DNA of 64,000 nucleotides from Caulobacteraceae bacterium (GTDB lineage: Bacteria > Pseudomonadota > Alphaproteobacteria > Caulobacterales > Caulobacteraceae), in the NCBI GenBank assembly GCA_965284375.1, contig OZ260074.1, positions 1,904,237 to 1,968,236 of the forward strand, read 5' to 3'. Numbering within the stretch: the stretch's first letter is position 1; each line of letters starts with the position of its first letter. Below are positions 15,012 to 36,067 of the stretch, in pieces. Both the position numbers and the translations under genes were made by a program. The notes under the pieces were generated by a model. That model was given only the letters and a program-made list of their open reading frames with translations, searched no databases and had not been told where the DNA came from.

Positions 15012-15631
15012 AGACAAGCCCCTGAGCCTTGGTCGTATGCCGCCTGACTAACGTGCTGCGCCCGCGAAGGCGAGGCCGGGGCCGTAACAATCCGTGAGCC
15101 CGTGTGACGTTCCGGGCCCCGGGCAGAGGTCTTCGCCCCGCCGCGCAGGCACGGTAGGTCGAGCGGGAGGCTTGGCAGAGCGCCCGGGCCTTCGCCCGGA
15201 AAAGCGTAGAAAAATACCGTTTCGACGAAGGCAGCACGCTCCGCGCGGACGGTTTTCCGGAAGCTTGCGTCGGGTGGCCGTGTTGGGGCCTTACCGCAGC
15301 GCCTCCGGCGGGCAGGTCGGGCGACGATCCCGATCCCTGGAACGACCTGGGTATCCCCCCGGCCCTCCACCCCGGGCGGGCGGCCCTTAGGAGGCCCCTG
15401 CGCCGGTCCGGCTCCGTCGGCTCGCACCGACGGACCCCGCTCCATCCGCTCCCGCCGCCGCTTCGGTTCGCCGGCCGAGCGAGCCTCCCTGCGACGGGAC
15501 AGGGAGGATTATGGGGGCGGTTCTTCCTGCGGCTGGGAGATGACGCCGGGCCAGCGTCTATATCACGATAGATCAATCGGTTAGCCGAACGAGCCTGTAT
15601 AGCTGAGCGTCTATTGCTCGCACTCAAAACA

Positions 15632-15672
15632 CCGTGCATCCCCGCGAAGGCGGGGACCCAGGTTTGAGCGGC
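15632..15672 (+). repeat. REP-like palindromic element, left arm of island
   Basis: ccgtgcatccccgcgaaggcggggacccaggtttgagcggc; identical over 41 nt to the reverse complement of 51976-52016 in murD. Confidence 0.92.
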
Positions 15673-15745
15673 AACGAGACGGGCTGAACGAACCCCTGCT
15701 CAACCCGACACCGGCGGCGAAGCCAAAAGGGACGCGTGTTCCCAC

Positions 15746-15818
15746 CGGGAGCCGACCTCAGGTCAGACGGCCGCAAGCGGACATCGCCGATGTCTCCTTT
15801 GGGGGGAAAGCGGACCTT
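15746..15818 (+). repeat. Site A: 5'-truncated bipartite site plus an extra 24-bp unit
   Basis: cgggagccgacc...aagcggac (15746-15782), then gtctcct-ttggggggaa-agcggac (15792-15815). Confidence 0.8.
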
Positions 15819-15899
15819 ACCCTTCTCGGAGACGCGCACCTTATCAGGGTGAAATCGGACCTTGGTTTGCGTCCAGCAGTCGCTTCACTGCTTAGACAG

Positions 15900-16118
15900 A
15901 TGCCGGCGTTCGTCGGAGACGCCGATATCGACTTCATGAAACAGATGCGGGGGCACCACCAGGCCGCTATCGCAATGGCGCGGGTCGAACTTGCGCATGG
16001 CAAGGACGTCCAGGCGCGGGCCCTCGCCCGGGATGTGATCACGGCTCAGGAGCGGGAAATCCAGATGATCGACGTCTGGCTTGGTCAGAAGGCGCCGTCT
16101 GCAGCGCCTGTGGCTTGA
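15900..16118 (+). pseudogene. 5'-truncated DUF305 (CopM-like) gene copy
   Basis: [36 protein letters not shown] is near-identical to the C-terminal half of 20657..21082. Signal peptide and N-terminal half are missing. Confidence 0.75.
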
Positions 16119-16343
16119 CGCCGCATCAGCGCACCACCGTCGGACCGGGTGAATGCGCGAAGTCAGCCGCTGATTGGACTTTGTCGCGGAGGTGCCCTTT
16201 TTGGCTCAAGATACCATCGGTCGCGATCGCCTTTCCTGAGGGGCGCGCTTGGCCAGCGCGTATAGAAGGTCGATACGAAGGGTCTTAAGACACCCGCTTC
16301 GTCGTTGGCCCAAAGGCTGGCTCTTGTTGAAGGAGACTACCCC

Positions 16344-16727
16344 ATGATCCGCACGCTCGCCGTCACCACCGCACTGGCCCTCGCCGGAACCGCCGCCGCA
16401 CAGGACCCCCATGCCGGCCACCACACGCAGGCCCAGGCTGCGATGCCGCAGTCCGGCATCATCACGGTCCCCGCTGACGGTGCCATGTTCTCGGGTTCAC
16501 CCGAACGGTTCTCCGCGACCTTCCCGCACCCGATGTTGCTCAAGACGGTAACCCTGACTGCCGAGGGGCAGGCACCCATTGTCGTGACCGCGCCCGTTTC
16601 GCCCGCCGCAGCGACCGTTGGCGTGGCATTGCCTCGCCTTGCACCCGGAACCTGGACAGCCGCCTGGGCCGCCGAGGGTGCCGACGGCCACAAGATGTCA
16701 GGCTCCAGCAGCTTCATGGTTCACTAG
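16344..16727 (+). CDS. CopC-like periplasmic copper-binding protein with His-rich N-terminus
   Basis: RBS aaggag; signal peptide; QDPHAGHH; WAAEGADGHKMSGSSSF. Confidence 0.8.
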   Translation: MIRTLAVTTALALAGTAAAQDPHAGHHTQAQAAMPQSGIITVPADGAMFSGSPERFSATFPHPMLLKTVTLTAEGQAPIVVTAPVSPAAATVGVALPRLAPGTWTAAWAAEGADGHKMSGSSSFMVH

Positions 16728-16732
16728 GGAGA

Positions 16733-16960
16733 ATGGTGATGAAAGTTTCCAACCTGCTGGCCGCAGCCGGCGCGGTCCTGACCCTCAGTGCTGGCGCGGC
16801 GCTCGCGGCCGATGGCTGCGAATGCTGCAAGGACATGGCTACTGATGCCGCAATGTCCTGCTGTGACAAGATGAAGACAGAACCCGCTCCAGCCCCGGGG
16901 CCCACTCCTGGGGCTGAGGAACCCGCGCCCGCTGCACCCGCAATGAGCCATCAACAATAA
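16733..16960 (+). CDS. Small secreted Cys/Met-rich protein
   Basis: Signal peptide, then ADGCECCKDMATDAAMSCCDKMK; RBS gggag. Confidence 0.7.
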   Translation: MVMKVSNLLAAAGAVLTLSAGAALAADGCECCKDMATDAAMSCCDKMKTEPAPAPGPTPGAEEPAPAAPAMSHQQ

Positions 16961-17015
16961 AGGCGGCCGGCTCGACCACCGCAAAGCCGGTTGGCCGCTC
17001 GCTCGGGGGAGTGAA

Positions 17016-18167
17016 GTGACAGACAGTCGCGGTCCCACACGGGTTCCTTTTCCCGACGTGCTCGATCCGCTCACCGGCGTGAGGTTCTTTCTCGCCCTCG
17101 GGGTCGTCCTGTTTCACTACCAGCTTCAATGGACCTTGCCGGGGGACGGGGGACTGCTGAACCGCGCGCGACTGGCGGTGGATGTGTTTTTCATCCTGTC
17201 GGGCTTCATCCTGACCCACGTCTATCTGCGAGGGGACGGAGCGTTGAACTACCGGCGGTTCCTCGCCGCTCGGTTCGCACGGATTTATCCGGCCCACCTG
17301 TTCATCCTTCTGGCCATGCTCGGGCTGGTGCTGGCAGCGCCCATTTTCGGCGTCGGGTTGGAGCCAGGCCGCTTTAATCCCGCCGACTTCGTAGGCAGTC
17401 TGCTGCTTGTTCAGGCTTGGTTTCCGCGCCAGACCTTGGCGCTCTGGAATGGACCGGCCTGGTCGCTGTCGGCGGAATGGTTCGCCTACTTGGCATTCCC
17501 GGCCTACGCCGCCTTGGCTTTCCGGCTGCGGACCAGACCGTGGGTCATCATCGGCCTCGCGGCGATATCGTTCGTCGTTCTGGACGCCATCTATCGTGCC
17601 CAGTTTGGGCGCGTGCTCCCTCGAGCCGAGGACAGCATGGGCATCCTGCGTATCGTCCCTGAGTTTCTCTACGGCATCGGCCTCTACTACCTCGGCCAGC
17701 GCTGGACGCCGTCGCCGCGCGTGTCAGTTGTGAGTGCATTGGCGACCACGGTCGCGCTGCTCTCGCTGATGCAGTTCGGCGTTGACGACCGCATCATCGT
17801 GGCGGCGGCCGGCCCCTTCATCCTGTCGCTCGCACTGCTGGAGAAGGCGGGCGTGCGGACCTTTCTGTCCCATCCGGTCGCCCTGTTCGCGGGCGAGGCG
17901 TCGTTCGCCCTCTATCTCGTCCACATCCCGATCCTGATGGTTTGGCGCAACGGGGCGCAGGCGCTCACTGGCTGGCCCGGTGATTACCGGATGGGCTTGG
18001 GAGAACTGGCTCCCATGCTGGTGTTGACGCTCGCCGCCGCCGCAGCCATCCATGTCTTCGTTGAGCAGCCGGGCCGACGGTGGCTCCGGGAGTGGATGGT
18101 GCCGAGACCCGTCGATCCCGTCGAGGCCAAACGTTCCGCTCACAGCGATCAGGGAGAGCCGTTTTGA
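17016..18167 (+). CDS. Membrane acyltransferase (acyltransferase-3 / OafA-like)
   Basis: LTGVRFFLALGVVLFH, AVDVFFILSGF, WNGPAWSLSAEWFAY, SFALYLVH. Confidence 0.9.
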   Translation: MTDSRGPTRVPFPDVLDPLTGVRFFLALGVVLFHYQLQWTLPGDGGLLNRARLAVDVFFILSGFILTHVYLRGDGALNYRRFLAARFARIYPAHLFILLAMLGLVLAAPIFGVGLEPGRFNPADFVGSLLLVQAWFPRQTLALWNGPAWSLSAEWFAYLAFPAYAALAFRLRTRPWVIIGLAAISFVVLDAIYRAQFGRVLPRAEDSMGILRIVPEFLYGIGLYYLGQRWTPSPRVSVVSALATTVALLSLMQFGVDDRIIVAAAGPFILSLALLEKAGVRTFLSHPVALFAGEASFALYLVHIPILMVWRNGAQALTGWPGDYRMGLGELAPMLVLTLAAAAAIHVFVEQPGRRWLREWMVPRPVDPVEAKRSAHSDQGEPF

Positions 18168-18640
18168 CATCCGTAACACTGAACCGTCGCCTGCTTTTGG
18201 GGGCCGCCCTTCTTGTCGGGTCGAGCGGGGCGGCTTGCGCCCAGTCGCGTCGGCCACGCGACCTCATGGTCTACAAGACGCCGACCTGCCCATGCTGCGA
18301 TGGGTGGATCGCGCACATGCGCGAGGCTGGATTTGCTGTCACGGTCACTGTCCTTCCCGATCTCCGACCGATCCGGATCGCCAGAGGTTTTCCGGATGCG
18401 CTGGCCTCGTGTCACACCGGACTGATCAATGGCTATCTCGTTGAAGGCCACGTCCCGGCGCCGGACGTCATCCGTCTGCTGAACGAACGGCCGTCGGCAA
18501 TCGGTCTCGCCGTCCCGGCCATGCCGCTGGGCTCTCCCGGGATGGAGACTCCGCAGGGGCACAAGGACGCCTTTGATACCCTGCTGGTGCTCCCGGCGGG
18601 CACCTCCCGCGTGTTCGCTCGCCACAACCAGCCGGCCTGA
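18164..18640 (+). CDS. DUF411 metal-binding protein
   Basis: YKTPTCPCCDGW, LASCHT, VEGHVP, GLAVPAMPLGSPGME. TTG start overlaps the previous stop. Confidence 0.9.
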   Translation: MTSVTLNRRLLLGAALLVGSSGAACAQSRRPRDLMVYKTPTCPCCDGWIAHMREAGFAVTVTVLPDLRPIRIARGFPDALASCHTGLINGYLVEGHVPAPDVIRLLNERPSAIGLAVPAMPLGSPGMETPQGHKDAFDTLLVLPAGTSRVFARHNQPA

Positions 18641-18686
18641 CGCAGGCCACACCCATCCATTCAGATCCCGCAACCCGGAGCCCGCC

Positions 18687-19178
18687 ATGTCCCGCAGACC
18701 TCTTGCTCTCGCGCTGTCGATCGCCGTCCTCTCAGCGATGCCGGCCTTCGCCCAGGACCACGCCCACGGCCATGACCACGCTGCAGGCTCGGTCGCCGAA
18801 GAGGCAGCGGGCGCCGCGGTGGCCGTCGACGCTTTCCACGCCGCATTGAAGGCCGGCGACACGGCCGCCGCCGTGGCCCTGATGGCCCCGGATGTGATGA
18901 TCTTCGAAGAGGGTTACGCGGAGCGATCGCGCGACGAATATGCGTCCCATCACCTGGGTTCGGACGCCGCTTTCGCGGCGGTATCACAGTCCGTGGTGGA
19001 ACGGCGGTCGGGCTGGGCGGACGGCGACATCGCCTGGATCACCAGTGAAGGCCGAACGACGGGTCAGGTTAATAATCGCCCCGTTGATCGCCTGACGACC
19101 GAGACCATGGTCCTGAAGCGCCACGCCGACGGCTGGCACATCCACCACATCCACTGGTCGTCGCGCGCTCCTGGCTAG
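18687..19178 (+). CDS. NTF2/SnoaL-like (DUF4440) secreted protein with His-rich N-terminus
   Basis: Signal peptide, QDHAHGHDH, DAFHAALKAGD, WHIHHIHWSS. Confidence 0.82.
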   Translation: MSRRPLALALSIAVLSAMPAFAQDHAHGHDHAAGSVAEEAAGAAVAVDAFHAALKAGDTAAAVALMAPDVMIFEEGYAERSRDEYASHHLGSDAAFAAVSQSVVERRSGWADGDIAWITSEGRTTGQVNNRPVDRLTTETMVLKRHADGWHIHHIHWSSRAPG

Positions 19179-19192
19179 GCGCGTTCACGACG

Positions 19193-20107
19193 TCACATGG
19201 CCGACGGCGGGGCGAGCGTGCCCATGATCGCGACGACGGCAATGAGCACGGCTCCGACAAGCGTCTCCGCGACGATGCTGCGTCGGAGCCGTTGAAGCGC
19301 CCGTCGAGGATCCTCGCCACCCGCCAGAACCGATCCCAACGTTGGCGTCAGGCGGAAGCGGTTTTCCGCCGCGAGGACCAGCATCAGCGCAAACAGCACC
19401 AGTTTGGCGATCAGGAGCTGGCCGTAAAGGCTGGTTCCCAGACCAGCTATGCGCGCGGGTCCGATCATGAACCAGCTGTTCCCCAGGCCACTCAGGACCA
19501 AGAGCACGACGGCCAAACTCCCCAAGCCCGCAAAGCCACGAAGGGCGCGATGGATCGCCGGGTCATCCGGGGTGGTTCGACGCAGCAAGAGCATCGTCAA
19601 GGCCGCGAGAGCGCCCAACCACAGCGAGGCGGAGACGGCATGGATGATGGCGGCGGTCAGATGCAACAGGCCACCCGGCCCCTCCGTCGCGGCCCCGTGA
19701 CCGGTCCAGGCGAAACTGGCCGATACGACCAGGCCGACCATCGCCAGCACGCCCCAAAGCACCTGTCCTGGCTTGAGGGCGACGATCGCGAGAAGCGCGA
19801 GCCCGGCGAGGACGGCCCGAGCGACCAGGGCCATACCGAGAGCCATGCCCGTGACCATGAAGGACAGCAACGCGGGTTTGAGGGCTTCGCTCAGCGACCC
19901 CGCCATGACCGCCGTCTGTGCCACCAGGGCGGCGAGCGATCCCAGGGCGACGACGGTCGCAGCGATGATCAGCGTCGGGCGCGCCCAGACGACGTTCGGG
20001 CCGCCGCCTCCCCTGAAGCTGTAGAGCAGGAACAGCGGTGCGCCGAGAAGGACGACCGCGCCGCTGTATTGAAGCCAGCGGAGCACAATGACCGCGACTT
20101 CGATCAT
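19193..20107 (-). CDS. copD: Copper homeostasis membrane protein CopD
   Basis: About eight TM segments, AWTGHGAA, H...WLGAL, LIAKLVLF; directly downstream of copC. Confidence 0.9.
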   Translation of the reverse strand: MIEVAVIVLRWLQYSGAVVLLGAPLFLLYSFRGGGGPNVVWARPTLIIAATVVALGSLAALVAQTAVMAGSLSEALKPALLSFMVTGMALGMALVARAVLAGLALLAIVALKPGQVLWGVLAMVGLVVSASFAWTGHGAATEGPGGLLHLTAAIIHAVSASLWLGALAALTMLLLRRTTPDDPAIHRALRGFAGLGSLAVVLLVLSGLGNSWFMIGPARIAGLGTSLYGQLLIAKLVLFALMLVLAAENRFRLTPTLGSVLAGGEDPRRALQRLRRSIVAETLVGAVLIAVVAIMGTLAPPSAM

Positions 20108-20111
20108 GCGG

Positions 20112-20474
20112 TCAGCGCACCGTGAAGGCGTAGGAACCCGTCATTCGGTGGCCGTCGCTTGATGCGATGCGCCAGTCGACGCGGTAGGATCCGGCGGCAA
20201 GACGGCGGGCCAGCCTCCCGTTCAGTGTCTTGCCGTCACGAGCAACCGAGGTTCGGACCGCGACCTTCTCGCCCGCGGTATTGACGACATCGAACCCGGA
20301 AAACGCGGGCACCGTGCGCTCACTGAAGGTCAGGCTCAGCGTCCGGGTTGAGGACACGGTCGCGTTCGGTGCCGGCGTTCCACTGACCAGTCGGGCGAGG
20401 GCCGCCGCTGGTCCGGCGGCGAACGCGACGACGGCCGCGACAGCGATGAATGGCGCGGGGTTGAAGTGACGCAT
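20112..20474 (-). CDS. copC: Copper resistance protein CopC (Leu at the usual N-terminal His position)
   Basis: LVSGTPAPNATV, LTFSE, YRVDWRIASSDGHRMTGSYAFTV. Confidence 0.9.
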   Translation of the reverse strand: MRHFNPAPFIAVAAVVAFAAGPAAALARLVSGTPAPNATVSSTRTLSLTFSERTVPAFSGFDVVNTAGEKVAVRTSVARDGKTLNGRLARRLAAGSYRVDWRIASSDGHRMTGSYAFTVR

Positions 20475-20656
20475 ACTCAGTCTCCAAACATTTGGCCGAT
20501 CCGGCCTTCTGGTTCTTTACGCACCTCGCGGGCACTTCCCTGACGGAGTGCGCGCGACTGACGGTGCCATATGCCAAGGGTGGGTCCTCCGCGTGAGACC
20601 CACTGGCGCTGGCTCCACTGGTCTATCCGGCTACGCCGGTGGCCGTGACGTCGAAG

Positions 20657-21082
20657 TCAGGTAGCGGGCATCGCAGACGCTTGCTTCTGAGTAAGCCAAG
20701 CGTCAATCATCTGGATCTCCCTCTCCTGAGCCGTGATCACATCCTGGGCGAGGGTCCGCGCCTCGGCGTCCTTGCCATGCGCGAGTTCCACACGGGCCAT
20801 AGCGATGGCGGCCTGATGGTGACCCCGCATCTGTTTCATGAAATCGATATCGGCGTCTCCGACGAAGGCGGGCATCTCCTCCATCATGGAGTTCATCGAA
20901 GACTTGTAGCCTCGCGTTGCGACGGAGTCGCCGGCTGCGGTCTGAGCCATGCCGCCCATGTTTCCGTGAGTGTCCGCGGTTGCAGCGACTTCAGTCGGGT
21001 CGGCGGCGGGGTCTGCCGCTTGTTGGGGTGAGCAGGCCGCCGAGAGGGCGCAGGCGGCGAGGATAACACTGATGCGGTTCAT
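20657..21082 (-). CDS. DUF305 (CopM-like) lipoprotein
   Basis: Lipobox LSAC; [25 protein letters not shown]...[12 protein letters not shown]. Confidence 0.9.
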
Positions 21083-21300
21083 GACGGCTCCTTGGGGTCC
21101 CGACGTTAGCGACCAGACCGGCAGGTTCGTTCCGTCAAGCTCTACGGCCCGCCCGCGCCAGGAGTTCGATCAGTTCGGCGGCTTTGGGCCAGGTGCCTGG
21201 GCAAACTGAGGCCGACCACCACGCCCGTTTATGGTTGCGATCTACATGCCGGCTCGCAACGTCGAGGCCCCGTGATGGTTTAAGACGGAGAGGAGCCTCC

Positions 21301-21690
21301 ATGACCTACTACTACAGCAAGACCAGCGATCTCCCGTTCGCGGAGGCCGTGGCACGCACACGCGAGGCTTTGAAAGAGCAAGGCTTCGGGATCATCACCG
21401 AAATCGACGTCACCAACACATTCAAGCAGAAGCTGGACCTCGACTTTCGGCCCTACGTGATCCTTGGCGCATGCAATCCGAAGGCGGCGTATGAAGCGCT
21501 CCTGCAGGAAGACAAGGTCGGCGTGATGCTACCGTGCAATGTCATCGTCCAACAGCGAGCCAGCGGAGGCGGCAGCGAGATCGCTGCGGTCGACCCTGTC
21601 GCCTCGATGTCAGCAATCCAAAACCCGGGTTTGAAGGCGAAGGCCGAGGAGATCGGAGCCAGCCTCAGGCGAGCGCTGGACGCAATCTGA
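21301..21690 (+). CDS. DUF302 domain protein
   Basis: LKEQGFGIITEIDV, YVILGACNP, GVMLPCNVIV; RBS gaggag. Confidence 0.9.
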   Translation: MTYYYSKTSDLPFAEAVARTREALKEQGFGIITEIDVTNTFKQKLDLDFRPYVILGACNPKAAYEALLQEDKVGVMLPCNVIVQQRASGGGSEIAAVDPVASMSAIQNPGLKAKAEEIGASLRRALDAI

Positions 21691-21900
21691 TAAGGCGCGA
21701 GCGGATGAGATCGGTTTACTCCATCCGGCAAAGTCACCCCACGAACTGCTGAGGCGTCCCCCAAGGCGCCTCAGGTAACTCGGAGGCGCTGTCCAACAGG
21801 CATAACTTCAGCCCAAAATCGCCGTGCAGGGTTTCGTCGTGCGGCGACCTCGGCCGTTGCCATTGCGAGCGGGTCGCACTATGGCGGATGCAGGAGTCGT

Positions 21901-22353
21901 TTGACCTTGTCTCGCCTGTTTCGCACTCTCTGCGTCAGCCTGTGCGCCGCCCTCGTGGCGGTTCTGAGTCTGCATGGGATCGAGGAGGGTCGGCACCAGA
22001 TCGCCCATGTGTCGGATTGGCCAGCCGTGGCAATCGACCACAACGATCATGTCGAAATCGCTGATGTCGATCACGGGGCGCTGCACATCCATGTCGCCCC
22101 CGGCGCGCCGGCCGATGACCCGCAGGATCAGGCCGAAGGCAGTAATGGCGATGAGGATGCCGGACGGCCCGCCAGCCATCACCACCATTCCAGCGGCGAT
22201 AATCACACCGCGATACCGGTCCTCCACCGCGACCTGAACCCTATCGTCGCCATCAACGCCGCGCTTCTCCAGCCGGCGGTCGATAGCGCACGCCCTGCCC
22301 ACGACGGCGACGGGCCTGAATACCCTCCTAAACGGACGCGCACGATCGTCTGA
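21901..22353 (+). CDS. His-rich protein upstream of czcCBA (CzcI/DUF2946-like)
   Basis: N-terminal hydrophobic segment, many His (SHHHHS), C-terminal GPEYPPKR. Confidence 0.7.
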   Translation: MTLSRLFRTLCVSLCAALVAVLSLHGIEEGRHQIAHVSDWPAVAIDHNDHVEIADVDHGALHIHVAPGAPADDPQDQAEGSNGDEDAGRPASHHHHSSGDNHTAIPVLHRDLNPIVAINAALLQPAVDSARPAHDGDGPEYPPKRTRTIV

Positions 22354-22404
22354 TCCGACGCGACCAGCCGGTCGCGCGCGCACCCCGTTTCCTGGAGATC
22401 TCCC

Positions 22405-23717
22405 TTGAAGACCCCATCGTCCGGCCTTGCCGGGCCGTGGGCGCGACTGACGGCCGTGTCGGCACTCGCGCTCATTCTGGCCGCTTCGCTGCCTCCGACC
22501 CCCGCTGTCGCTCAGGATGTGGCGGCGACCAACGCCTCGCCTGTCCTGTCACTGGACGAGGCACTGCAACGCTCTGCGCATGTCGATCCAGCCCTGGCTC
22601 CAACCCAGGCCAGACGATCGGCGTCGCTTGCAGCCGTGCGCCAGGCCGATGTTCGGCCCAATCCCACGGTGGGGGTCATGGTCGAGAACTTCCCGACTAT
22701 CGGCGGCGGAGACCTGTTCCGCCGCACCGAGACCACGCTCAGTGTCGAGCAGCGTTTCGAGCGTGGTGGTGACCGTCAGGCGCGGGTCTCTCTCGCCGAA
22801 GCCGAAGGGCTGCTCCTCGACGCCTCCGCCCGCATCCGCCAACTGGATCGGCTCGAACAGGTGCAGCGCGCCTGGGCTGACGCTCTGGCGGCCCAGGCCG
22901 AACTGGAGATCGCACGTGAGCGTCTCGACCTTGCCGAACGGTTCCAGACGGAGGTCGGTCGTCGGGTGGACATGGCGCGCGATCCTCTGTTCGCCGGTGC
23001 GCGAGCAGAAGCCGAACTGGCCCAGGCGCAGATCGATTTCGATCAGGCCGGGATCGCCGTTCGGGTCGCCAAAATCTCTCTGGCCCGGTTCTGGGATGGA
23101 TCGGCGGACTTCAGCCTCGGTGCCGACACCTTCGCCGATACCCGGTCATCGCTCACCATTGCGGACGGGGTCGCCCAGGCGGACCTCGACATCTTCGTCG
23201 CCCAGCGGGACATCGCCATCGCCCGCGTGGCCGTGGAGACCGCCCGCGCCCGCTTGGACGCTACGATCAGCGCTGGGGTTCGTCACTTCGGCGATGGCAA
23301 CGACCTCGGGTTCGTCATCGGTGGCTCGATCCCTCTGGGTCGCTATGACCAGAACCTCGGTGCCATCGACCGCGCCCGAGCGGAGGGTCTGGCCGCCGAG
23401 GGGGACCTCGCCGCCGCCCGCATCGATCGGGAGCGCGAGATCGCGCGCTTGCAGGTGCAGGTCATGGCTCGCGCCAGCGAAGCGCGGCGGATCGGGGAAG
23501 AGACCCTGCCCCAGGCCGAGCGCGCCGTCGTGCTCGTGCGTGACGGCTTCAACCGGGGCGGCTTCACCTACAACGACGTGATCTCCGCCCAGACCGCGCT
23601 GCTGCAAACCCGCGCCCGTCGCGTCGCAGTGCTCAAACAGTTCCACATCGATCGCGCCCGCCTCGACCGGCTGACCGGCGCGCACGGCGACCTGATCCTC
23701 GCCCTGGAGACCCAACC

Positions 23718-23721
<4 letters not shown>
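22405..23721 (+). CDS. czcC: Heavy-metal RND efflux outer membrane protein (TolC family)
   Basis: TolC-like helical repeats; first gene of a C-B-A operon. Confidence 0.9.
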
Positions 23722-28183
<4,462 letters not shown>

Positions 28184-28224
28184 CGACAGAGGCTAACATG
28201 ACGGACGGGCCTTACGCCCGTCCG

Positions 28225-29556
28225 TCAGTCCTTGGCCTTGGGCCATCGCGGATGTCTCTCGTCGATGACGAAGGGATGGCTGTGCACCGCATCGTCGGAT
28301 CGGCCTTCTGACAGATGGGGATCGCTGCCGGTCAGTTCGTCGTGATGATGCGGCAGGTCCGCCGGGTCGTTGGCGGGCCAGACCACGAAGCCGAGGACCG
28401 TGCCGACGGCGCATAGGCCCGCCAGCACAAGGAAGGCCGCGCTGGGGTCCGCCGCCGCGCTGACCAGACCCGCGACCGGATAGGCGATCAGCCATGCGGC
28501 ATGCGACAAGGCGAACTGCGCCGCGAACAGGGCCGGGCGATCCTGTGCGTTGGACGACCGGCGAAGTGCGCGGCCCGCAGGCGTCAGGGTCAGGGAATAG
28601 CCCACACCCATGATGGCCCACAGGACCACTAGAACGACATAGCTCGTCGCCAACACTGAGCCCGCCAGGAGCACAACCGTCATGATCGCCGCGCCCCACA
28701 GCATGGCCGTGCGGTCGGCGATCCTGTCCAGCAGGCGCGGCAGGGCGATCGCCGCCGCCATAGACCCGACCCCGAAAGCCGCCAGCGCCCAGGCGGCGGC
28801 CTGACCGGACATGCCGAAGCGCGACTGCACGAGCACCACGGTGTTGACGAAAACCATGGCACCCCCGGCGGCCTCGGCGATGCTGATCGCGATCAGGCCG
28901 CGCAGACGGGGGGTCAGCGCGAACAACCGCACACCGCCGGTCAGCCGCTGCACAAAGGGCTTCTGGATCGTTTGGGTCAGAACCGGCAGGGCGGCGCTGA
29001 CGACGAACGCAGCCGAAATGACGAAGCCGAGTGCGGTGCCTGCGAACAGATTGTTGTAGCTCATGAATGCCAGAAGAACGGCCGCCAGAACGGGGCTTGC
29101 CACGCTCTCCAGATCGGCCGCCAGACGCGAGAGCGACAGCGCCTTGGTGTATTCGCCCTCGTCCGGCAGAAGATCGGGGATCATGGCCTGAAACGCGGGC
29201 GTGAAGGCCGCAGACGCCACATAGAGAACCGTCATCAGGGCGTAGACCTGCCAGGCTTCGCCCACGAACGGCAGGGCTGCGGCAACACAGGCGCGGACGA
29301 CGTCGAGCGATACGAGAAGGGTCTTGCGAGGAAGTCTGGCCGCCAGCGCGCTCGCAAACGGCGCGACGCCGATATAGGCGATCATCTTGATAGCGAGCGC
29401 CATCCCCAGCACTTCGCCGGCGTTGGCACCCGCCAGGTCATGCGCCAGCAAACTCAACGCCACCGTGGCCATGCCCGTGCCGAGCAGGGCCGCGACCTGG
29501 GCGATGAAAAGGTGCCGGTAGCCGGCGTGCCGAAGCGGTGAAATCATGGACAGCAT
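28225..29556 (-). CDS. nreB: MFS transporter, NreB/NrsD-like nickel efflux, with His-rich tail
   Basis: YRHLFIAQVAALLGTG...ALAIKMIAYIGVAP, AAQFALSHAAWL, tail PHHHD...HSHPFVIDERHPRWP. Confidence 0.85.
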   Translation of the reverse strand: MLSMISPLRHAGYRHLFIAQVAALLGTGMATVALSLLAHDLAGANAGEVLGMALAIKMIAYIGVAPFASALAARLPRKTLLVSLDVVRACVAAALPFVGEAWQVYALMTVLYVASAAFTPAFQAMIPDLLPDEGEYTKALSLSRLAADLESVASPVLAAVLLAFMSYNNLFAGTALGFVISAAFVVSAALPVLTQTIQKPFVQRLTGGVRLFALTPRLRGLIAISIAEAAGGAMVFVNTVVLVQSRFGMSGQAAAWALAAFGVGSMAAAIALPRLLDRIADRTAMLWGAAIMTVVLLAGSVLATSYVVLVVLWAIMGVGYSLTLTPAGRALRRSSNAQDRPALFAAQFALSHAAWLIAYPVAGLVSAAADPSAAFLVLAGLCAVGTVLGFVVWPANDPADLPHHHDELTGSDPHLSEGRSDDAVHSHPFVIDERHPRWPKAKD

Positions 29557-29595
29557 CCAGCAGGCGGGGCTTGGCGTATGACGAGCCCTATTCGA

Positions 29596-29652
29596 GGTAA
29601 GCCATCGCGCAAAGCGGACGTTCCCGATGACTTCGATGGGTCAAAGGCGGCC
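29596..29652 (+). repeat. Decayed copies of the 24-bp unit
   Basis: aaagcggac (29611-29619) and gacttcg-atgggtcaaa-ggcggcc (29629-29652). Confidence 0.6.
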
Positions 29653-29671
29653 GTCTTGGCCGTTCGACGGA

Positions 29672-29726
29672 AATGTCCGCTTTGGGTCGGAAGCCGACCG
29701 TCGCTGAACGGTGGGAAGCGGACATT
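29672..29726 (+). repeat. Site B (49-bp bipartite core 29675-29723)
   Basis: aatgtccgctttgggtcggaagccgaccgtcgctgaacggtgggaagcggacatt. Confidence 0.92.
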
Positions 29727-29768
29727 GAAAAGCCGCTTCTTAAGAGGCACCGTGATCTGTCTCAAGGG

Positions 29769-30185
29769 GTGGAGAAGTCTGTCATAGCTACCAAAATCAC
29801 GCCCGCGAAAGCCGTCAGCCGTGGCACCCTGACCGTCAACGGCGCGGTCATGTCGATGATGTTTGGCCTCCCGGCGTTCGCTTTTGCGATGACCCTGCTC
29901 CTTGGGTTTGATGGGCAGACAGCCGCGCCAGTGGCAGGGCTCACCTTCTTCGCAAGCTGGCCGTTGGCTTGGCTCACATGGTCCCTTCTCGTCGTCCGGT
30001 GGAGGGTTTGGGCTTACGAGCGAGTTGACGATCTGGACGAACTAAAGATGCACGCGGTGGCTGCCGGTCTGATCTGGCGCGACGGGCACTTCTTCGAGCG
30101 AACGGAAATCCGCTCGCAGCATCAACGCAAACGCATTCGCGAACTTGAGCAGGATTGGGCAGCAAGGCGTGGAGACCGGGGCTAG
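29769..30185 (+). CDS. Hypothetical membrane protein (cassette 1)
   Basis: Two TM segments, then VRWRVWAYERVDDLDELK...GLIW. Start uncertain. Confidence 0.75.
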   Translation: MEKSVIATKITPAKAVSRGTLTVNGAVMSMMFGLPAFAFAMTLLLGFDGQTAAPVAGLTFFASWPLAWLTWSLLVVRWRVWAYERVDDLDELKMHAVAAGLIWRDGHFFERTEIRSQHQRKRIRELEQDWAARRGDRG

Positions 30186-30202
30186 CCTGCCATCTCGCTA
30201 GG

Positions 30203-30255
30203 AGGTCCGCTTTGGGTCGGGACCGGACGGTCGCCCAACGGCCGAAAGCGGACCT
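30203..30255 (+). repeat. Site C (core 30205-30253)
   Basis: aggtccgctttgggtcgggaccggacggtcgcccaacggccgaaagcggacct. Confidence 0.92.
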
Positions 30256-30315
30256 GTCTGACGGTTTAGCTCCTGCACCCCCAGACGGCGTATCCGTAGT
30301 CGACACAGCTATCGC

Positions 30316-30483
30316 TCAGAGAAGTTTGCGCTCCCAGGCCTCTTGCGCATCGGCGGTAAGGGCCAAGGCAGTCCACTCACGGGCGTGGGTGGCGTAGATT
30401 GCCTTCACGCCTAGGCTTGTTGCCTCCGCCGCCCGCATGAGAGCGTCGGTAGCTTTCGCTCGGCAGGCTTTGGCGTTCATCAT
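30316..30483 (-). CDS. Small hypothetical helical protein, 55 aa (cassette 2)
   Basis: MMNAKACRAKATDALMRAAEATS...AREWTALALTADAQEAWERKLL. Confidence 0.55.
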   Translation of the reverse strand: MMNAKACRAKATDALMRAAEATSLGVKAIYATHAREWTALALTADAQEAWERKLL

Positions 30484-30639
30484 GGCGGCATAGCCATGCG
30501 CCCTATCGCAAGGAATAGCGCAGTCTTTCTGCGGTGTAGCTTGCGACGGGGCCATCGCCACCTTCCGAACCTTGTTCTCAAAGGCGGCTTTGTCCTCGTC
30601 GCACTCTAGCTCGCGGGCTAGGATGACCCTACTCCTTGG

Positions 30640-30716
30640 GTTTGCTGGGCGGGAAAGCCGCCCGCCGCCTGAGGGTCAGAAGCACACCGTCGCTTTAGAA
30701 TGAACGGTGGATGCCG
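30640..30716 (+). repeat. Site D: three decayed tandem units
   Basis: gtttgct..gggaaagccgcc, gccgcct-gagggtcaga-agcacac, then gtcgct[ttagaat]gaacggtgga, which matches unit 2 of site B with a 7-nt insert. Confidence 0.65.
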
Positions 30717-30717
30717 T

Positions 30718-31698
30718 TTAGGTAAGTCGGGCCTCGGGTCGAGTGCCACCTATAAAGGCATGGATGCGTTCAGCGATAGCGTCGTCGTGGCCGAGCCAAA
30801 TGTGGCCACCGGTGGGATAGATCGTAAGTTCTGAGTGCGGGACCACAGCAGCAATTTTGCGTGCGGTGGCGGCGGTGCCAAACCGGTCGTCTTCAGCAGA
30901 AATCACTAACAGCGGCATAGTTAGAGCGGAAAAATCCATCTTCGCCGGATGCCCTGCCTGCACGGCGTCGTTTAGCATGCCCCTTGTTCGCGCGCGTATC
31001 GGCATAATGTCAGACGCGATGGAATATGCCCGCCTGCGCTCGCTCAGGCTGACTTTCGACAACAGACGCGGGTCCGTGGCTAGGAGCGTGCCAATCAGCA
31101 TTTCGGGATTTGCGTTGAGAGCCGACCAGTAGAGAAAGTCCGAGTTGAGCACCGCTCGGACGGCTGCCTGTTGCATGCCGCTCATTTCTACCGGATCGCT
31201 CCCGCTGACGTTCGCTGCAGGGACCAGCAAGATTAGACCGCTGCACCGATCGGAATGCCGCAAAGCGAATGCCGACGCAGACAACGCTCCTGCCGAACCA
31301 CCAATGACGGGAAGCTGATCGATCTGGAGATGATCGAGCAGCGTGACGAAGGCGTCGGCCTGATTGGCCAGGGACGGGTCAACCGGAAATTCGCTCCGCA
31401 GATACCCGAACCGCGAAGGGGCGATGACGCGATGCCCGAGATCCTGGAGCGCCGAACCGAACCGCAGCCCCTGATCGAAGCCACCGCCGGTGCCGTGGAT
31501 CATCAGGACAGGGGAGCCGGTGCCCGCAACGGCATACTCGAGTGCGCCAAATGCGGACTGTATGATCTGGCTTCGACCGGAGATGCGTCGCTCGGCCGCT
31601 TCTACGGCATGCCGGAAGCGCGTTGAGACATATCCGCCGCCCAGCAAGGCGACGGCTCCCGTTCCCAGCAACCACTGTCGGCGGCTAATCCGGCTCAT
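30718..31698 (-). CDS. Alpha/beta hydrolase (cassette 3)
   Basis: VLMIHGTGGG, IAPSRFGY, nucleophile elbow GGSAGA, PTGGHIW. Confidence 0.9.
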   Translation of the reverse strand: MSRISRRQWLLGTGAVALLGGGYVSTRFRHAVEAAERRISGRSQIIQSAFGALEYAVAGTGSPVLMIHGTGGGFDQGLRFGSALQDLGHRVIAPSRFGYLRSEFPVDPSLANQADAFVTLLDHLQIDQLPVIGGSAGALSASAFALRHSDRCSGLILLVPAANVSGSDPVEMSGMQQAAVRAVLNSDFLYWSALNANPEMLIGTLLATDPRLLSKVSLSERRRAYSIASDIMPIRARTRGMLNDAVQAGHPAKMDFSALTMPLLVISAEDDRFGTAATARKIAAVVPHSELTIYPTGGHIWLGHDDAIAERIHAFIGGTRPEARLT

Positions 31699-32096
31699 CC
31701 CTGTTCACGTCTGCCTATAAACACGGGCATCAGAGCGGCGATCATCTGGGCCGAAAGACCGACCAGTCCTGCGGTCGTAGCCAGCGCTGCCCACTGCTCC
31801 GGCACCGATCGTCCGAATAGCGCTGCACCGAGCAGCGCCTCGAACGCGAACAGCAATAGGACGAACCACAGGACCATCGCCCAGCGGATCGAAGCATCAC
31901 GAGGCACCTGCCAGTGCCTGACCGACCAACGGCAGGCAAAAACGGCGGCCACAAGCATCAACGGCACTTCGGCAGCCGTTGCAATGAGCTCACCGAGGCG
32001 CGGCGCGATGTAAATCACGCGGATAGTCCCCAGGCCGAAGCCTAAGGCAAACAGCGCCAAGAAATACATAGTTCCAGCGATCAGGGCGCGTTTCAA
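31695..32096 (-). CDS. Hypothetical membrane protein (cassette 3), coupled to the hydrolase
   Basis: Four TM segments, GTIRVIYIAPRLGE..A..AEVPLML; 4-nt overlap with the hydrolase start. Confidence 0.75.
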   Translation of the reverse strand: MKRALIAGTMYFLALFALGFGLGTIRVIYIAPRLGELIATAAEVPLMLVAAVFACRWSVRHWQVPRDASIRWAMVLWFVLLLFAFEALLGAALFGRSVPEQWAALATTAGLVGLSAQMIAALMPVFIGRREQG

Positions 32097-32307
32097 AACA
32101 GTTCCCTGCAATGTCAAACTTGGCGATACCAGTAAGGCCCCGTATTCGCATGGAGCCATAACGGTGCAGGACCAATACGACCGTTCGCACGGAAGAGCCT
32201 ACTCTTTCTGCGGCGTAGCTTGTTCGAGTCGGCGCTTCTCTCCCTGTGACCGCAGTTCAAGGAGAGAGCGCACGGCCGTTGCAACGACTTCCGCCAACAG
32301 CGGCTGC

Positions 32308-32358
32308 ATGTCTGCAACGGGTCGGGAGCAGACCGTCGCCTAGGGGTGGAAAGCAGCC
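32308..32358 (+). repeat. Site E (core 32310-32358)
   Basis: atgtctgcaacgggtcgggagcagaccgtcgcctaggggtggaaagcagcc. Confidence 0.85.
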
Positions 32359-32442
32359 GGTCAACAAAGCGACGATATGCGCTTGCCGATCCCGCTCGAC
32401 GGGGGCAGTCGGTCGGGCATGAGGCCCAAGAACGCGACCGAT

Positions 32443-33264
32443 TTAGGTGCGTGTACCGACGGCCAAAAGATATTCCACCTCGAAGCGCGCCTTATCAGCG
32501 CCTCCGCGGTTCCAGCGCGCCGTCAACGCCTCAAGCGTCTCGTCGAGCTGACTTTCGCAACCATCCTTTTTCGCGTTGGCGCGGGCAACGATTGTCGGCC
32601 CATAGGAGGCCGACATATGGGCGGCGTAGTCGGCGGGCTTTTCGAAGGCTGTGACTTCGAGATTCTCACGATCCAGCGTTCGCCAATGCACCCGCTCGCC
32701 GAACAGCTTTTGAACGTGCCCTTCACTACCCCACAACGGAGGCGGCTGGGCTCCCGGCGGGGGCGGCGGCGCAAAGGGCCTCATAGTCTTGAACAGATCG
32801 CCGACCATGCCTTCAGGTGTCCAGTTGAGCATCCCAATGGTCCCGCCCGAGCGGCACACTCGGACCAGCTCGTCGGCCACTTTCTGATGATGCGGAGCGA
32901 ACATCGCACCGATCGATGACATGACGACATCAAAGGACTCGTCTTCGAAGGGCAAATTTTCGGCGTCGGCCTCTACCCATTCTAGCTGGACGCCCTCACG
33001 CTTTGCGCGCTCGCGGCCGGCGTCGAACAGCTCGGGAGTGAGGTCGCTCGCGGTAACGTGCGCGCCGATGGCGGCGGCAGGGATCGAAGCGTTGCCCGTG
33101 CCCGCAGCAACGTCGAGAATTTTCATGCCCGATTGAATCTCGCACGCTCGGACCAGGCGGGGGCCGAGCGGCAACAGAAACGTCTCGACCATCTGAGGAT
33201 AGTCGCCCGAAGCCCACATCTGACGATGGCGCATTTTAAGATCTGAATCGGATATCTCAGACAC
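32443..33264 (-). CDS. Class I SAM-dependent methyltransferase (cassette 4)
   Basis: ILDVAAGTGNA, ADAENLPFEDESFDVV, ELVRVCRSGG; RBS ggaggg before GTG 33264. Confidence 0.92.
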   Translation of the reverse strand: MSEISDSDLKMRHRQMWASGDYPQMVETFLLPLGPRLVRACEIQSGMKILDVAAGTGNASIPAAAIGAHVTASDLTPELFDAGRERAKREGVQLEWVEADAENLPFEDESFDVVMSSIGAMFAPHHQKVADELVRVCRSGGTIGMLNWTPEGMVGDLFKTMRPFAPPPPPGAQPPPLWGSEGHVQKLFGERVHWRTLDRENLEVTAFEKPADYAAHMSASYGPTIVARANAKKDGCESQLDETLEALTARWNRGGADKARFEVEYLLAVGTRT

Positions 33265-33360
33265 CGTTGACCCTCCCTCGCGACCCACTGAAACGACACG
33301 CTCAACGGACACGCGCAGGAGCTTAGGCATATCGGGAACCCCGACAATGTTAAACAGCTT

Positions 33361-33413
33361 AGGTCCGCTTTGGGTCGGGAGCCGACGGTCGCTCTAGGGC
33401 GGAAAGCGGACCT
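33361..33413 (+). repeat. Site F (core 33363-33411)
   Basis: aggtccgctttgggtcgggagccgacggtcgctctagggcggaaagcggacct. Confidence 0.92.
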
Positions 33414-33648
33414 TAGCCTAAGGCAAGTTATTGGACTCGGATCTGGTCACTGTCGTCGGAGCACGTGCTTCCTTGGTTCGGGGCGGCAAACGTTCTTGTC
33501 AGCCCAAAATGATCCGATAGCCTAGCCCAACACCTCATAACTTCCTGTTCCGCGCACCGCCTGCTCTGGGCCCCTTATGCGGACCAATCCTCAGAGCGAC
33601 CGGTGCCGGAGGCAACTCAGAAATCGTTTGGGCTAACAACACACATCG

Positions 33649-35139
33649 TCACCGCTGAACGTAGAAGCCTCGGTCATCTTGTGTCAGATTGATCAACGGG
33701 CCGATCGGAAAACTTACCCCTCGCCGGACTAACTCGGTTCTCACCTGTACGAGAGCGTCTAGTTCGTCCTGCGGGATACCGCTCTGCCCCTGCGCCGTCT
33801 CTAAGGTGGCACCGAGGTGGACCGGATCGCCGGCCCAGCCGCGATCTATCAGCCAGACGACCTTCTTCCACTGGCTCATGACCGAGGCTGTCTGCATCAA
33901 GGGTGCGCCCTCCGGCGCAATCCCGTCCGGGTCGGCACCGGCTGACAGAAGGGCGTCCCAGTTCGCCCAAGCCGCCGCCTCAGGCAGTCCGTCCACCCGC
34001 TCCAGACTTGACGCCAGATTCAGAGCAATCTGAAGCGCGGTTTCTCGGTCGTCATAGGCATTGGCGTCGCCGCCGCGATCCAGCAGTTGTTGAAGGATGG
34101 CCGGTTCGCGCGTTTCCGCCGCAACCGTCACCGGCGTCGCGCCGAACTCCTCGCGCCGGTTGGGATCGGCACCCGCGTCCAGCAGGGCTTCGACCCCTGT
34201 CACGCTGCCGCAATCAATAGCCCACAGGAGCGGGGTCACCCGTTGAGTACTCCCTCCCGGCCCGGAGCCCTCGCCGCCTATTGAGTTGGGGTCGGCACCG
34301 GCACCAATAGCCGCGACGACTGCCACCGTATCGCCCGCGCATGCTGCGCGGGCCAAGGCGGCGACCGTATTGTCGGGAAACAGATCGCCTGCGGTCAGGC
34401 CAAACATTGCGTGTTCCCCGCCCGCGCGGTCGAAAGCAACCATTGCCCCCATGTTTCTGAACAGTTGGTTCTGGGCCTCGCCGCAGACCGCATGCGCGCA
34501 ATAATCCGCTTGCGCAGCCGCGATCTGGTTCTGCACCAAATCGACGCCCGCTTCCTTCAGCGCCTCGCTACCTTCGACCCTTACCAATGCCTGTCCCGCC
34601 GCGCTTTCACTGAAGGCTATCGACGTCGGCGAAGGGTCAAAGGGCACCATTTGCTCCAGCCTCTGCTGGTCACCGTTCTCCAGCATGGTCAGATACTGAT
34701 CGAGGTACCCCGCCTTGGCGTTGAGCCCCGCCTGCCCCTCGGGAGAAGTGTAGAAGGCGATGACCGCGCGCATGTCCTCGTCCGTCATCCCGCGGGCATA
34801 TCGATCGACAAAAATCTCGCGGCTCTGTTCTGCCCCGACAGCGGCTCCCATCTCAAAGCTCTGAAAAAGTTGGGCTTCGTCAAGCGCCGGAGCCCCTCCG
34901 GAAAAACCGATCGTGCTGATGAGAGTCTGCTGGATTGCCTGTTCGGACATGCGCAGGACCAAAGAATCGATCACGGGTGGCTGGATGGCCTCCAGCAGTT
35001 CTCGGGCCAACGCCAGCCGATCAGGGCCGGGATCGATCGCGATCGACTGCGCCGATGCGGCCGTCGCCATAAGTGGCAGTCCGACCAGGATCGCCGCCCA
35101 CTTAGTCCAAAAACGCATCACACGCCTCCTCACACTCAC
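33649..35139 (-). CDS. Secreted DUF2059-like plus ankyrin-repeat protein (cassette 5)
   Basis: Signal peptide; YARGMTDEDMRAVIAFYTSPEGQ; ankyrin repeats VTPLLWAIDCG..LLDAGADPN, ATPVTVAA, ETALQIAL. Start approximate. Confidence 0.8.
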   Translation of the reverse strand: MSVRRRVMRFWTKWAAILVGLPLMATAASAQSIAIDPGPDRLALARELLEAIQPPVIDSLVLRMSEQAIQQTLISTIGFSGGAPALDEAQLFQSFEMGAAVGAEQSREIFVDRYARGMTDEDMRAVIAFYTSPEGQAGLNAKAGYLDQYLTMLENGDQQRLEQMVPFDPSPTSIAFSESAAGQALVRVEGSEALKEAGVDLVQNQIAAAQADYCAHAVCGEAQNQLFRNMGAMVAFDRAGGEHAMFGLTAGDLFPDNTVAALARAACAGDTVAVVAAIGAGADPNSIGGEGSGPGGSTQRVTPLLWAIDCGSVTGVEALLDAGADPNRREEFGATPVTVAAETREPAILQQLLDRGGDANAYDDRETALQIALNLASSLERVDGLPEAAAWANWDALLSAGADPDGIAPEGAPLMQTASVMSQWKKVVWLIDRGWAGDPVHLGATLETAQGQSGIPQDELDALVQVRTELVRRGVSFPIGPLINLTQDDRGFYVQR

Positions 35140-35371
35140 CGACCCTAAGTTGATCGCTTGCGAAATGTCGAGCCTGCCGCTCTCCTCCCATTCCCGGCAC
35201 TCCTCGGCCCAATAGTCTCCCCCATGAGCGACGACTCCTACGGGTCTGTCAGCCCAAATTCAGTCGCTCGGTAGTCAGGGTTGCCTACCGTCGCTGCCGT
35301 GGCCAGATCGATCAATTCGTTCCGCTATTTCGAAAGCTCGCCGGGGAAGTGATCAAGCCAAGTCATTTCGC

Positions 35372-35426
35372 AATGTCCGCTTTGGGTCGAGAGCCGACCA
35401 TCGCCTGAGGGTGGGGAGCGGACGTT
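35372..35426 (+). repeat. Site G (core 35375-35423)
   Basis: aatgtccgctttgggtcgagagccgaccatcgcctgagggtggggagcggacgtt. Confidence 0.92.
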
Positions 35427-35459
35427 GAAGTTCTGGCAGCGTTCCGACAAACTATTGTC

Positions 35460-35888
35460 ATGAGCCGCTCACCGAACCAGCGACCGTCGATCAGACAAGC
35501 AGCCTTCGCGCTCCTTATCCTCGTAGTCGCGTTGGCCAACGAGTGGTTTTTGGGGTTCAGATTGGACAACGCGGCGGGTCGCTCCGCAGAACTTTTCATG
35601 GCGATTGCATTGATTGCCTCCGCAACAATAGTTTTTGCCCCGCTTGGCCGCCCCCGGAGAATACTTGCCGCAGTATTGGCATTCGTTTCAGTCGTTTTGC
35701 TCTGGGTGATTAATGCGAAATTCAGCATTAAGTTAGATGTCGCATTTGGCGGCGAGTACGGCTGGAGCGGGACCAAATTTGCCTGGATGGTGGTGCTTGG
35801 ACCAGTCTTTGGCCTGGTTGCGATGATCCTTACGTTCGGTTTCGCGCACCTCCGCGCCTTCAATCGCCCCCCCTTCACCGGAAGTTGA
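35460..35888 (+). CDS. Hypothetical membrane protein, four TM segments (cassette 6)
   Basis: 142-aa hydrophobic ORF with AT-richer codons; stop lies 2-4 nt before site H. Confidence 0.75.
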   Translation: MSRSPNQRPSIRQAAFALLILVVALANEWFLGFRLDNAAGRSAELFMAIALIASATIVFAPLGRPRRILAAVLAFVSVVLLWVINAKFSIKLDVAFGGEYGWSGTKFAWMVVLGPVFGLVAMILTFGFAHLRAFNRPPFTGS

Positions 35889-35890
35889 AG

Positions 35891-35917
35891 GAGTCCGCTA
35901 CGGGTCGGGAGCAGACC
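35891..35917 (+). repeat. Site H: single 24-bp unit (3'-truncated site)
   Basis: gtccgct-acgggtcggg-agcagac (35893-35916); unit 2 is absent. Confidence 0.85.
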
Positions 35918-35987
35918 TTGACTGACCCGCACAAAGCAGACGCCGTGCGGGTCCCTTGCCCCCCGGACCTGCGGTCCAGGGGCGGTG

Positions 35988-36030
35988 GCCAAGCTAAAGC
36001 CCGGGTCCCCGCCTTCGCGGGGATGCACGG
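35988..36030 (-). repeat. REP-like palindromic element, right arm of island
   Basis: Reverse complement ccgtgcatccccgcgaaggcggggacccgggctttagc; matches the arm at 51887 (…cccaggctttggc). Confidence 0.92.
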
Positions 36031-36067
36031 ATGATAGGGGGCCGTGTCGATGCGGATCTGGATCAAG

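Follow-up and report, generated by a model that had tools for sequence, protein, structure and literature searches.

We analysed a 64,000-nucleotide stretch (hereafter, the window; C1:1904237-1968236) of the complete, single-contig, 2.95-Mb genome of a Caulobacteraceae bacterium [GCA_965284375.1; contig OZ260074.1], in which an island of about 20 kb, bordered by inverted arms of a repetitive extragenic palindromic (REP) sequence, separates the core genes ppdK and ccrM. The two ends of the island are parts of one composite repeat, and the REP doublet contained in this repeat is broken close to the base of the hairpin that it can form. We consider it probable that a single composite unit was split here by foreign DNA inserted at the hairpin base, the doublet being the target of the insertion and not its vehicle. 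The genome is labelled G000 below, and other labels beginning with G or L denote comparison genomes and loci. Relatives recovered via ccrM belong to Brevundimonas, the closest named one being Brevundimonas sp. BR2-1 (CcrM identity of 96%).

The island ends and the composite repeat

The first-pass annotation of the window had described the boundaries of the island, 15632 and 36030, as inverted copies of a 31-nt arm with 30 of 31 positions identical. This proved correct, the single difference being ACCCAGG versus ACCCGGG. Arm A occupies positions 15632-15662 (+), and the 28-nt arm core, CCGTGCATCCCCGCGAAGGCGGGGACCC, is found without mismatches at 15632-15659 (+) and, as arm B, at 36003-36030 (-). 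In total, the window contains four exact copies of this core, two at the island ends and two in an intact doublet at 51887-52016, with none expected by chance. The inner sides of the island arms differ, as had been noticed, the left one being aggtttgagcggc (type A) and the right one gggctttagc (type B). The intact doublet is 130 bp long, belongs to the same family and lies inside a murD-like open reading frame (ORF; 51268-52770, -). It was claimed to repeat the island pair in both the types and the order of the arms; the types are indeed the same, but the order is flipped: on the plus strand, arm B comes first and arm A second. It should be mentioned that the murD-internal doublet is kept in relatives, since metagenome copies L136, L139 and L143 have the same flanks.

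The left end of the island (15632-15727) accounts for 96 nt of a 128-nt doublet, i.e., arm A and the entire spacer, ending AAGCCAAA. Its spacer part (15663-15727, +) is complete up to ...GGCGGCGAAGCCAAA and can be aligned with intact doublets as far as position 15727, with 63 nt of canonical spacer continuous with the left arm. The right end contains 50 nt (35981-36030), composed of GGCGGTGGCCAAGCTAAAGCC and arm B, and the distal spacer end kept on this side (35981-36002, +) includes GGCGGTGGCCAAGCTAAA. A spacer segment of about 15-18 nt, GGCGGYG..AAGCYAAA, is thus duplicated on either side of the cargo, forming an imperfect direct repeat that brackets it (15713-15727, GGCGGCGAAGCCAAA, versus 35981-35998, GGCGGTGGCCAAGCTAAA). 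When one copy of the duplication is removed and the left piece is joined to 35999-36030, the product is 128 nt long, which is the modal doublet length. Folded as DNA, this reconstituted unit gives a hairpin with a 28-bp stem (-52.6 kcal/mol, z = -8.2). The break falls after position 96 of 128, i.e., 4 nt ahead of the 3' stem strand formed by arm B. The earlier suggestion that cargo was inserted into the loop of a resident doublet therefore holds, on the best reading, as far as the doublet is concerned, but the insertion point is the junction of the spacer and arm B, away from the loop centre.

The similarity extends beyond the arms on both sides. Both island ends are parts of one composite repeat of about 665 bp, composed in this order of a structured RNA-like core (about 350 nt), a linker, the 128-bp REP hairpin doublet and a tail of about 40 nt. 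The left part (15121-15631, +) includes a short leader and the RNA-like core (15165 to about 15520), followed by a conserved linker with the end ...ttgctcgcactcaaaaca. This region has six further copies in the genome with an identity level of 86-96%, making a seven-copy repeat of which the doublet is the 3' module; the match of the left flank to these copies spans 470-600 nt. Copies c2010, c1403 and c1610 end in a full doublet, copies c2941 and c2826 end in one perfect 32-nt palindrome, CCGTGCATCCCCGCGAAGGCGGGGATGCACGG, and copy c1037 has neither. The uninterrupted paralog of the split unit is c1403 (genome positions about 1402570-1403235). The right tail of the composite repeat (36031-36072, +; ATGATAGGGGGCCGTG...GGATCAAG) matches the tail of c1403 over 42 nt with a score of 36, compared to a shuffle maximum of 26 (0 of 300 shuffles reached the score), and is not similar to the flanks of the other doublets. 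Since both outer flanks match one composite repeat, both ends of the island belong to one unit.

Comparison of copies c2941 (genome positions 2940931-2940962) and c2010 (2011189-2011316) revealed that they have both flanks in common, with a single 32-nt perfect palindrome between the flanks in the former and a 128-bp doublet in the latter. Thus, the doublet interior of about 96 nt acts as an indel within a single hairpin.

The same ends could be explained by two independent truncated repeats that bracket a variable region, namely a composite copy without arm B and a ccrM-side doublet without arm A and most of its spacer, the island having grown between them by successive insertions. This explanation draws on the fact that two doublets found upstream of ccrM in other strains (L147 and G001, see below) lack the RNA-like element and that the overlapping 15-18 nt are not identical; moreover, the T variants in the right copy of this segment are those of L147 and c1403, and the C variants in the left copy are those of c2010. 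It requires, however, two complementary truncations that happen to tile one unit. A second arm A remnant left of 35981, which would favour a model with two doublets, was sought and rejected: the similarity leftward of this position is not significant (192 of 500 shuffles reach it). In addition, the right tail is similar to that of composite copy c1403 and not to the flank of L147, and therefore both copies would have to be composite ones. For these reasons two separate units appear unlikely to us.

The ppdK-ccrM spacer in related strains

The core genes on the two sides of the island are ppdK, encoding pyruvate phosphate dikinase (12321-15017, -; Pfam PPDK_N, PEP-utilizers and PEP-utilizers_C; 88-94% identity with other members of the genus), and ccrM, encoding an adenine methyltransferase (36132-37211, +; 86-96% identity within the genus). 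They are adjacent in only part of the genus. In BR2-1 (L050), L052 and G005, homology with the window ends after gtgacgttcc (15113) and restarts at atcaagctaacc (about 36062). The difference between the occupied and the empty spacer (15114-36061; 20,948 bp) is therefore the entire composite unit together with the cargo. It goes beyond arm A by 518 nt on the left and beyond arm B by about 31 nt on the right, and comparison with the empty sites showed no target duplication outside the arms.

The gap between ppdK and ccrM is 185 bp in BR2-1, 174 bp in L052, 245 bp in L055, 281 bp in L057 and 320 bp in G005; in the latter it contains a different doublet that resembles a REPIN (REP doublet forming a hairpin). 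Other strains have in this gap a catalase gene (G017, L053, L054, L059), a haloacid dehalogenase (HAD) hydrolase (L067) or an alpha/beta hydrolase (G014). The ppdK-ccrM sites of these relatives contained neither arms of the family studied here nor the RNA-like element nor any homolog of the cargo proteins. An alpha/beta hydrolase is also encoded in the island, but it has no homology to that of G014 and was rejected as the same gene. In general, a hot spot of variable content lies between the divergent promoters of ppdK and ccrM, this spacer being either empty or occupied by catalase, HAD hydrolase or alpha/beta hydrolase genes or by doublets of three REP families (L031, L032, L033, L050-L059, L067, L147, L009).

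An intact 128-bp doublet, with arm A on the left and arm B on the right, was revealed directly upstream of ccrM in metagenome locus L147 [Ga0247719_1008465], which aligned to window positions 35981-37403 with 87.5% identity. In G001, the ccrM promoter is preceded, at a distance of about 75 nt, by a doublet of the sister subfamily. These two cases indicate that the region upstream of ccrM is a recurrent home of such doublets. The first-pass annotation had proposed to look in relatives for an empty site with a short doublet between ppdK and ccrM. The result is divided: the closest relatives have neither doublet nor cargo, while the more distant metagenomic relative L147 does have the short doublet. 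A metagenome scan for the ppdK-side junction, which would mark the unsplit intermediate, gave 0 matches.

The split may have taken place in this lineage. It may also have taken place in a donor strain, and the block as a whole would then have entered by homologous recombination in ppdK and ccrM.

Cargo of the island

The cargo between the doublet halves (15728-35980) is 20,253 bp long. According to Pfam and NCBIfam scans, its first part contains genes for a CopC-like protein, an Acyl_transf_3 acyltransferase, CopD, CopC, DUF305 and DUF302 proteins. They are followed by a CzcCBA-type resistance-nodulation-division (RND) pump (OEP/HlyD/AcrB; 22405-28183), a major facilitator superfamily (MFS) transporter (28225-29556), an alpha/beta hydrolase, a methyltransferase and an ankyrin/DUF2059 protein; several further ORFs have no family match. 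No recombinase, integrase or transposase was revealed in the cargo by these scans. The G+C content drops to 59-63% in its right third.

Analysis of the distribution of the cargo modules demonstrated that the cargo is a mosaic. The block comprising the RND and MFS genes has its counterparts in G048 and G049 (84-88% identity), the copper block shows 72-80% identity to many genomes, in which its internal order differs, and single units bounded by 58-nt palindromes stand alone in G035 (90-93%) and G004 (87%). Overall, the modules are found apart in other genomes of the genus with an identity level of 72-93%, and their flanks in G004 and G049 contain neither arms nor attC-like sites. This genome has no second copy of the cargo. 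The plasmid collection yielded matches to CzcA only (72-75% identity) and hence no plasmid from which the island could have come.

A 222-bp inverted repeat (15898-16119 versus 20656-20877; 85% complementarity) brackets the copC-acyltransferase-copD-copC segment, the orientation of which differs from that of homologous copper regions in other genomes. It duplicates part of the DUF305 gene, a fragment of which forms the left copy.

The right third of the cargo is organized in a different way. Repeat analysis revealed here six cassette-like units bounded by 58-nt palindromes (29672-35947). These attC-like palindromes have the structure (AAC)GTCCGCTTTGGGTCGGGAGCCGACC...AAGCGGAC(GTT), with ends GTCCGC...GCGGAC, and delimit separate small cassette-like units; in the window they are located at 29672-35947 and also at 15746-15823. 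Further clusters are present in the genome, with at least 13 sites at 2458851-2471151 (2.4588-2.4712 Mb) and others at 2836001-2845184, 526284 and 558842.

Such an organization calls for comparison with integron cassette arrays and integrase-less attC clusters. Like an integron array, the right third of the cargo consists of small consecutive units that each have an imperfect palindrome of about 58 nt at their end, and single units recur alone elsewhere, as in G035 and G004. If the palindromes are true recombination sites, a circle or an array could have recombined at a site already present in the doublet and further cassettes could have been added later, so that the doublet would be merely the neighbourhood of the event. 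The positions of the outermost sites fit this idea: a partial site (15746-15785, +) is found 18 nt inward of the left junction, and about 35 nt inward of the right one there is a full site, likewise on the plus strand; the other clusters of the genome, among them the one with at least 13 sites, fit it as well. However, a search for the integron integrase (IntI, TIGR02249) gave just Xer-like matches well below the cut-off in G000 and none at E <= 1e-40 in 61 genomes of the genus, although the control genomes were also integron-free and the search is thus unvalidated. Clear R''/R' boxes appear to be lacking in the island: the clusters at 2.46 and 2.84 Mb have AAC-GTCCGC...GCGGAC-GTT boxes, whereas the island copies carry AAT/ATT, AGG/CCT and similar ends instead of AAC...GTT. 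Furthermore, the 18 nt and about 35 nt that separate the attC-like sites from the doublet pieces have no match elsewhere, 58-nt sites do not delimit the copper and RND modules, and the duplicated spacer segment is left unexplained. Taking both sides into account, we regard recombination at attC-like sites as quite improbable.

The repeat family and the possible way of insertion

In total, 68 arms with two or fewer mismatches were found in this genome, and about 60 of 66 good arms belong to tight doublets of 122-134 bp. A genome-wide census with a looser arm model gave about 30 doublets of 122-134 bp, seven single palindromes and about six good solitary arms, two of which are the island ends. 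The first-pass annotation had warned that the pairing would be expected by chance if the arms were abundant and mostly solitary; mapping of all arms showed that most of them are paired in doublets. The presence of six solitary arms in the genome still allows the supposition that two unrelated ones happen to face each other across the island. In a simulation, two of six solitary arms were adjacent within 20.4 kb, convergent and of unlike types with p ~0.025, a value that takes into account position, orientation and arm type only and would be lowered further by the matching break points and composite flanks. We consider a coincidence of this kind extremely improbable.

The arm family was revealed in 53 of 61 Brevundimonas genomes, with 1-156 arms each, and an exact-match scan of metagenomes for arm A gave 22 loci, among them L145 and L147, and 20 of the 22 have intact doublets of 124-130 bp. 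Several other candidates for split doublets were considered and rejected. The arm pair 102908/116055 becomes two ordinary doublets under the looser arm model, the pair 4.9 kb apart on G066:C46 also represents two separate doublets, and pairs 248-369 bp apart contain a nested MITE (miniature inverted-repeat transposable element; L159) or a GIY-YIG ORF (L160, L161). In the case of L159 (G031:C1:758219-758491) the MITE is about 120 nt long, has TAGAGC... ends and is nested in the doublet spacer. In locus L145 [Ga0136639_10069414] the doublet spacer is interrupted at about position 58 by an IS5-family element.

Spreading of the doublets by REP-associated tyrosine transposases (RAYTs) or other HUH enzymes, assumed in the first-pass annotation, is not supported. 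The complete genome contains no RAYT (Y1 HUH, PF01797), while the control genomes gave matches, and PF01797 is present in just 2 of the 61 Brevundimonas genomes. An IS110 DEDD transposase, considered as a REP-targeting element or as the source of the RNA-like module, is also absent from the genome.

These data bear on the other half of the earlier proposal, that the doublet moves as a composite carrying cargo, with the arms acting as transposon ends. Identical inverted arms do bracket the cargo, and the empty sites lack arms and cargo alike, as would be expected after such a movement. However, the genome encodes no RAYT or other candidate transposase for the arm ends, none is present in the cargo, which itself is a mosaic and exists in a single copy, and the cargo modules of G004 and G049 are armless. 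Moreover, the repeat unit runs 510 nt past the left arm and 42 nt past the right arm, and therefore the inserted DNA does not end at the arms; no target duplication is located outside them. Movement of the cargo by the doublet thus seems to us very improbable.

A different enzyme accompanies the repeat family. In G032 and G049 the doublet spacer contains a GIY-YIG ORF of about 95 aa (PF01541; L160, L161). Its homolog in G000 is located outside the window, at genome positions 116105-116431 (-), and arms abut both of its ends. At 28 of the best 30 Brevundimonas GIY-YIG loci, arms are located no more than 50 nt from the gene, the usual order being arm(+) - ORF - arm(-). In Caulobacterales, a GIY-YIG gene was found in 64 of 101 genomes, and its loci have flanking inverted repeats in 19 of 30 cases versus 1 of 60 shifted controls; the arms at these loci are co-varying versions of the same REP. 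We found no paper in the literature searched that ties GIY-YIG proteins to REPs or REPINs. This small Slx1/YhbQ-like nuclease is a candidate partner enzyme of the repeat family, and its gene together with the bracketing inverted arms represents a candidate kind of mini-element.

If a single composite unit was split by an insertion, as we suppose, the break could have arisen as follows. The doublet would extrude as a hairpin or cruciform and be nicked near the base of the stem, possibly by the small GIY-YIG nuclease whose genes are bracketed by the same arms. The break would then be repaired by capture of foreign DNA, and staggered nicks would yield the short duplication of the spacer. A broader version of this scheme, in which RAYT-less alphaproteobacterial REP doublets are cut near the stem base by nucleases of the GIY-YIG genes they bracket and so become landing pads for recombinase-free foreign DNA, the island being one preserved capture, is a speculative idea that we consider unlikely.

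Several observations speak against the splitting of one unit by foreign DNA. An unsplit composite repeat was not found between ppdK and ccrM in any relative, and the composite repeat could have arrived before the cargo or together with it. The doublets of L147 and G001, devoid of the RNA-like element, have flanks that are not clearly orthologous to those of the island. The two copies of the duplication differ by two substitutions and a 3-nt indel although the arms are identical, which is odd for a recent target duplication unless selection or gene conversion keeps the arms uniform; in addition, we know of no transposase that produces a duplication of 15-18 nt. The attC-like sites just inside both junctions could mark another insertion chemistry.

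The repeat family shares several features with known systems. Like REPINs mobilized with RAYTs (Bertels and Rainey, 2011, PMC3116915; PMC3337134), it consists of short palindromic repeats that are paired in inverted doublets, have a uniform spacer, are dispersed between genes and form long hairpins. In contrast to them, it resides in a genome without RAYT, and the genes flanked by its arms encode a GIY-YIG nuclease instead of a Y1 HUH transposase. A GTAG tag at one REP end is a feature of the REPIN-RAYT class (PMC3733652), but the island arm, CCGTGCATCCCCGCGAAGGCGGGGACCCAGG, lacks GTAG on either strand. Thus, the common assumption that a REP doublet is a RAYT-driven REPIN fails for this large alphaproteobacterial family.

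The CGTC-tagged REPs of alpha-Proteobacteria (Di Nocera et al., 2013, PMC3733652) are similar by their host group and by a tag-like tetranucleotide before the hairpin. Here the tetranucleotide is CGTG or CGCT, not the canonical CGTC in this genome, while the exact CGTC occurs in some copies such as L042. The CGTC-tagged REPs have no dedicated transposase and are also found inside genes (PMC3733652), the intragenic copy in our case being that in murD. REP-targeting insertion sequences, e.g., ISPpu9 of the IS110 family, provide an example of a REP serving as an insertion site for other DNA, and in ISPpu9 a small-RNA gene travels beside the REP (PMC12288879). However, the insert described here is a 20-kb mosaic without a transposase, no IS110-type gene is present, and the junction has a duplication of 15-18 nt.

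REP-type repeats are usually taken to mark old, stable chromosome, and regions free of REPs are where acquired DNA is expected to lie (PMC3390384). In our case, a 20-kb resistance island that was acquired and has no recombinase of its own is located inside a single REP doublet, with junctions clean enough to place the break at the hairpin base. If our interpretation is correct, the island marks such repeats as landing sites of foreign DNA and not as its carriers, and it makes testable the idea that hairpin repeats, possibly cut by an associated GIY-YIG nuclease, serve as entry points for foreign DNA.

The RNA-like core at 15165-15520 deserves separate mention. It occurs throughout the genus, the number of copies per genome ranging from 1 to about 19. 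When 12 copies were aligned, they gave a multi-helix consensus with compensatory changes at 15 of its 74 pairs, a number reached in 0 of 500 shuffles (slid controls, 2-5), and several G-U pairs fit the plus strand only. No match was found in Rfam, with either gathering or permissive thresholds, for this element or for the 58-nt palindromes. In other genomes, REP hairpins of other families are located 110-150 nt downstream of the core (copies L039-L049), and the REP may therefore be a 3' hairpin module of the RNA-like element. The element itself is a candidate for a new structured RNA or a mobile RNA-like module. A further RNA gene of the window, at 60804-61180 (-), is an ordinary feature, a bacterial RNase P RNA of class A (305.7 bits).

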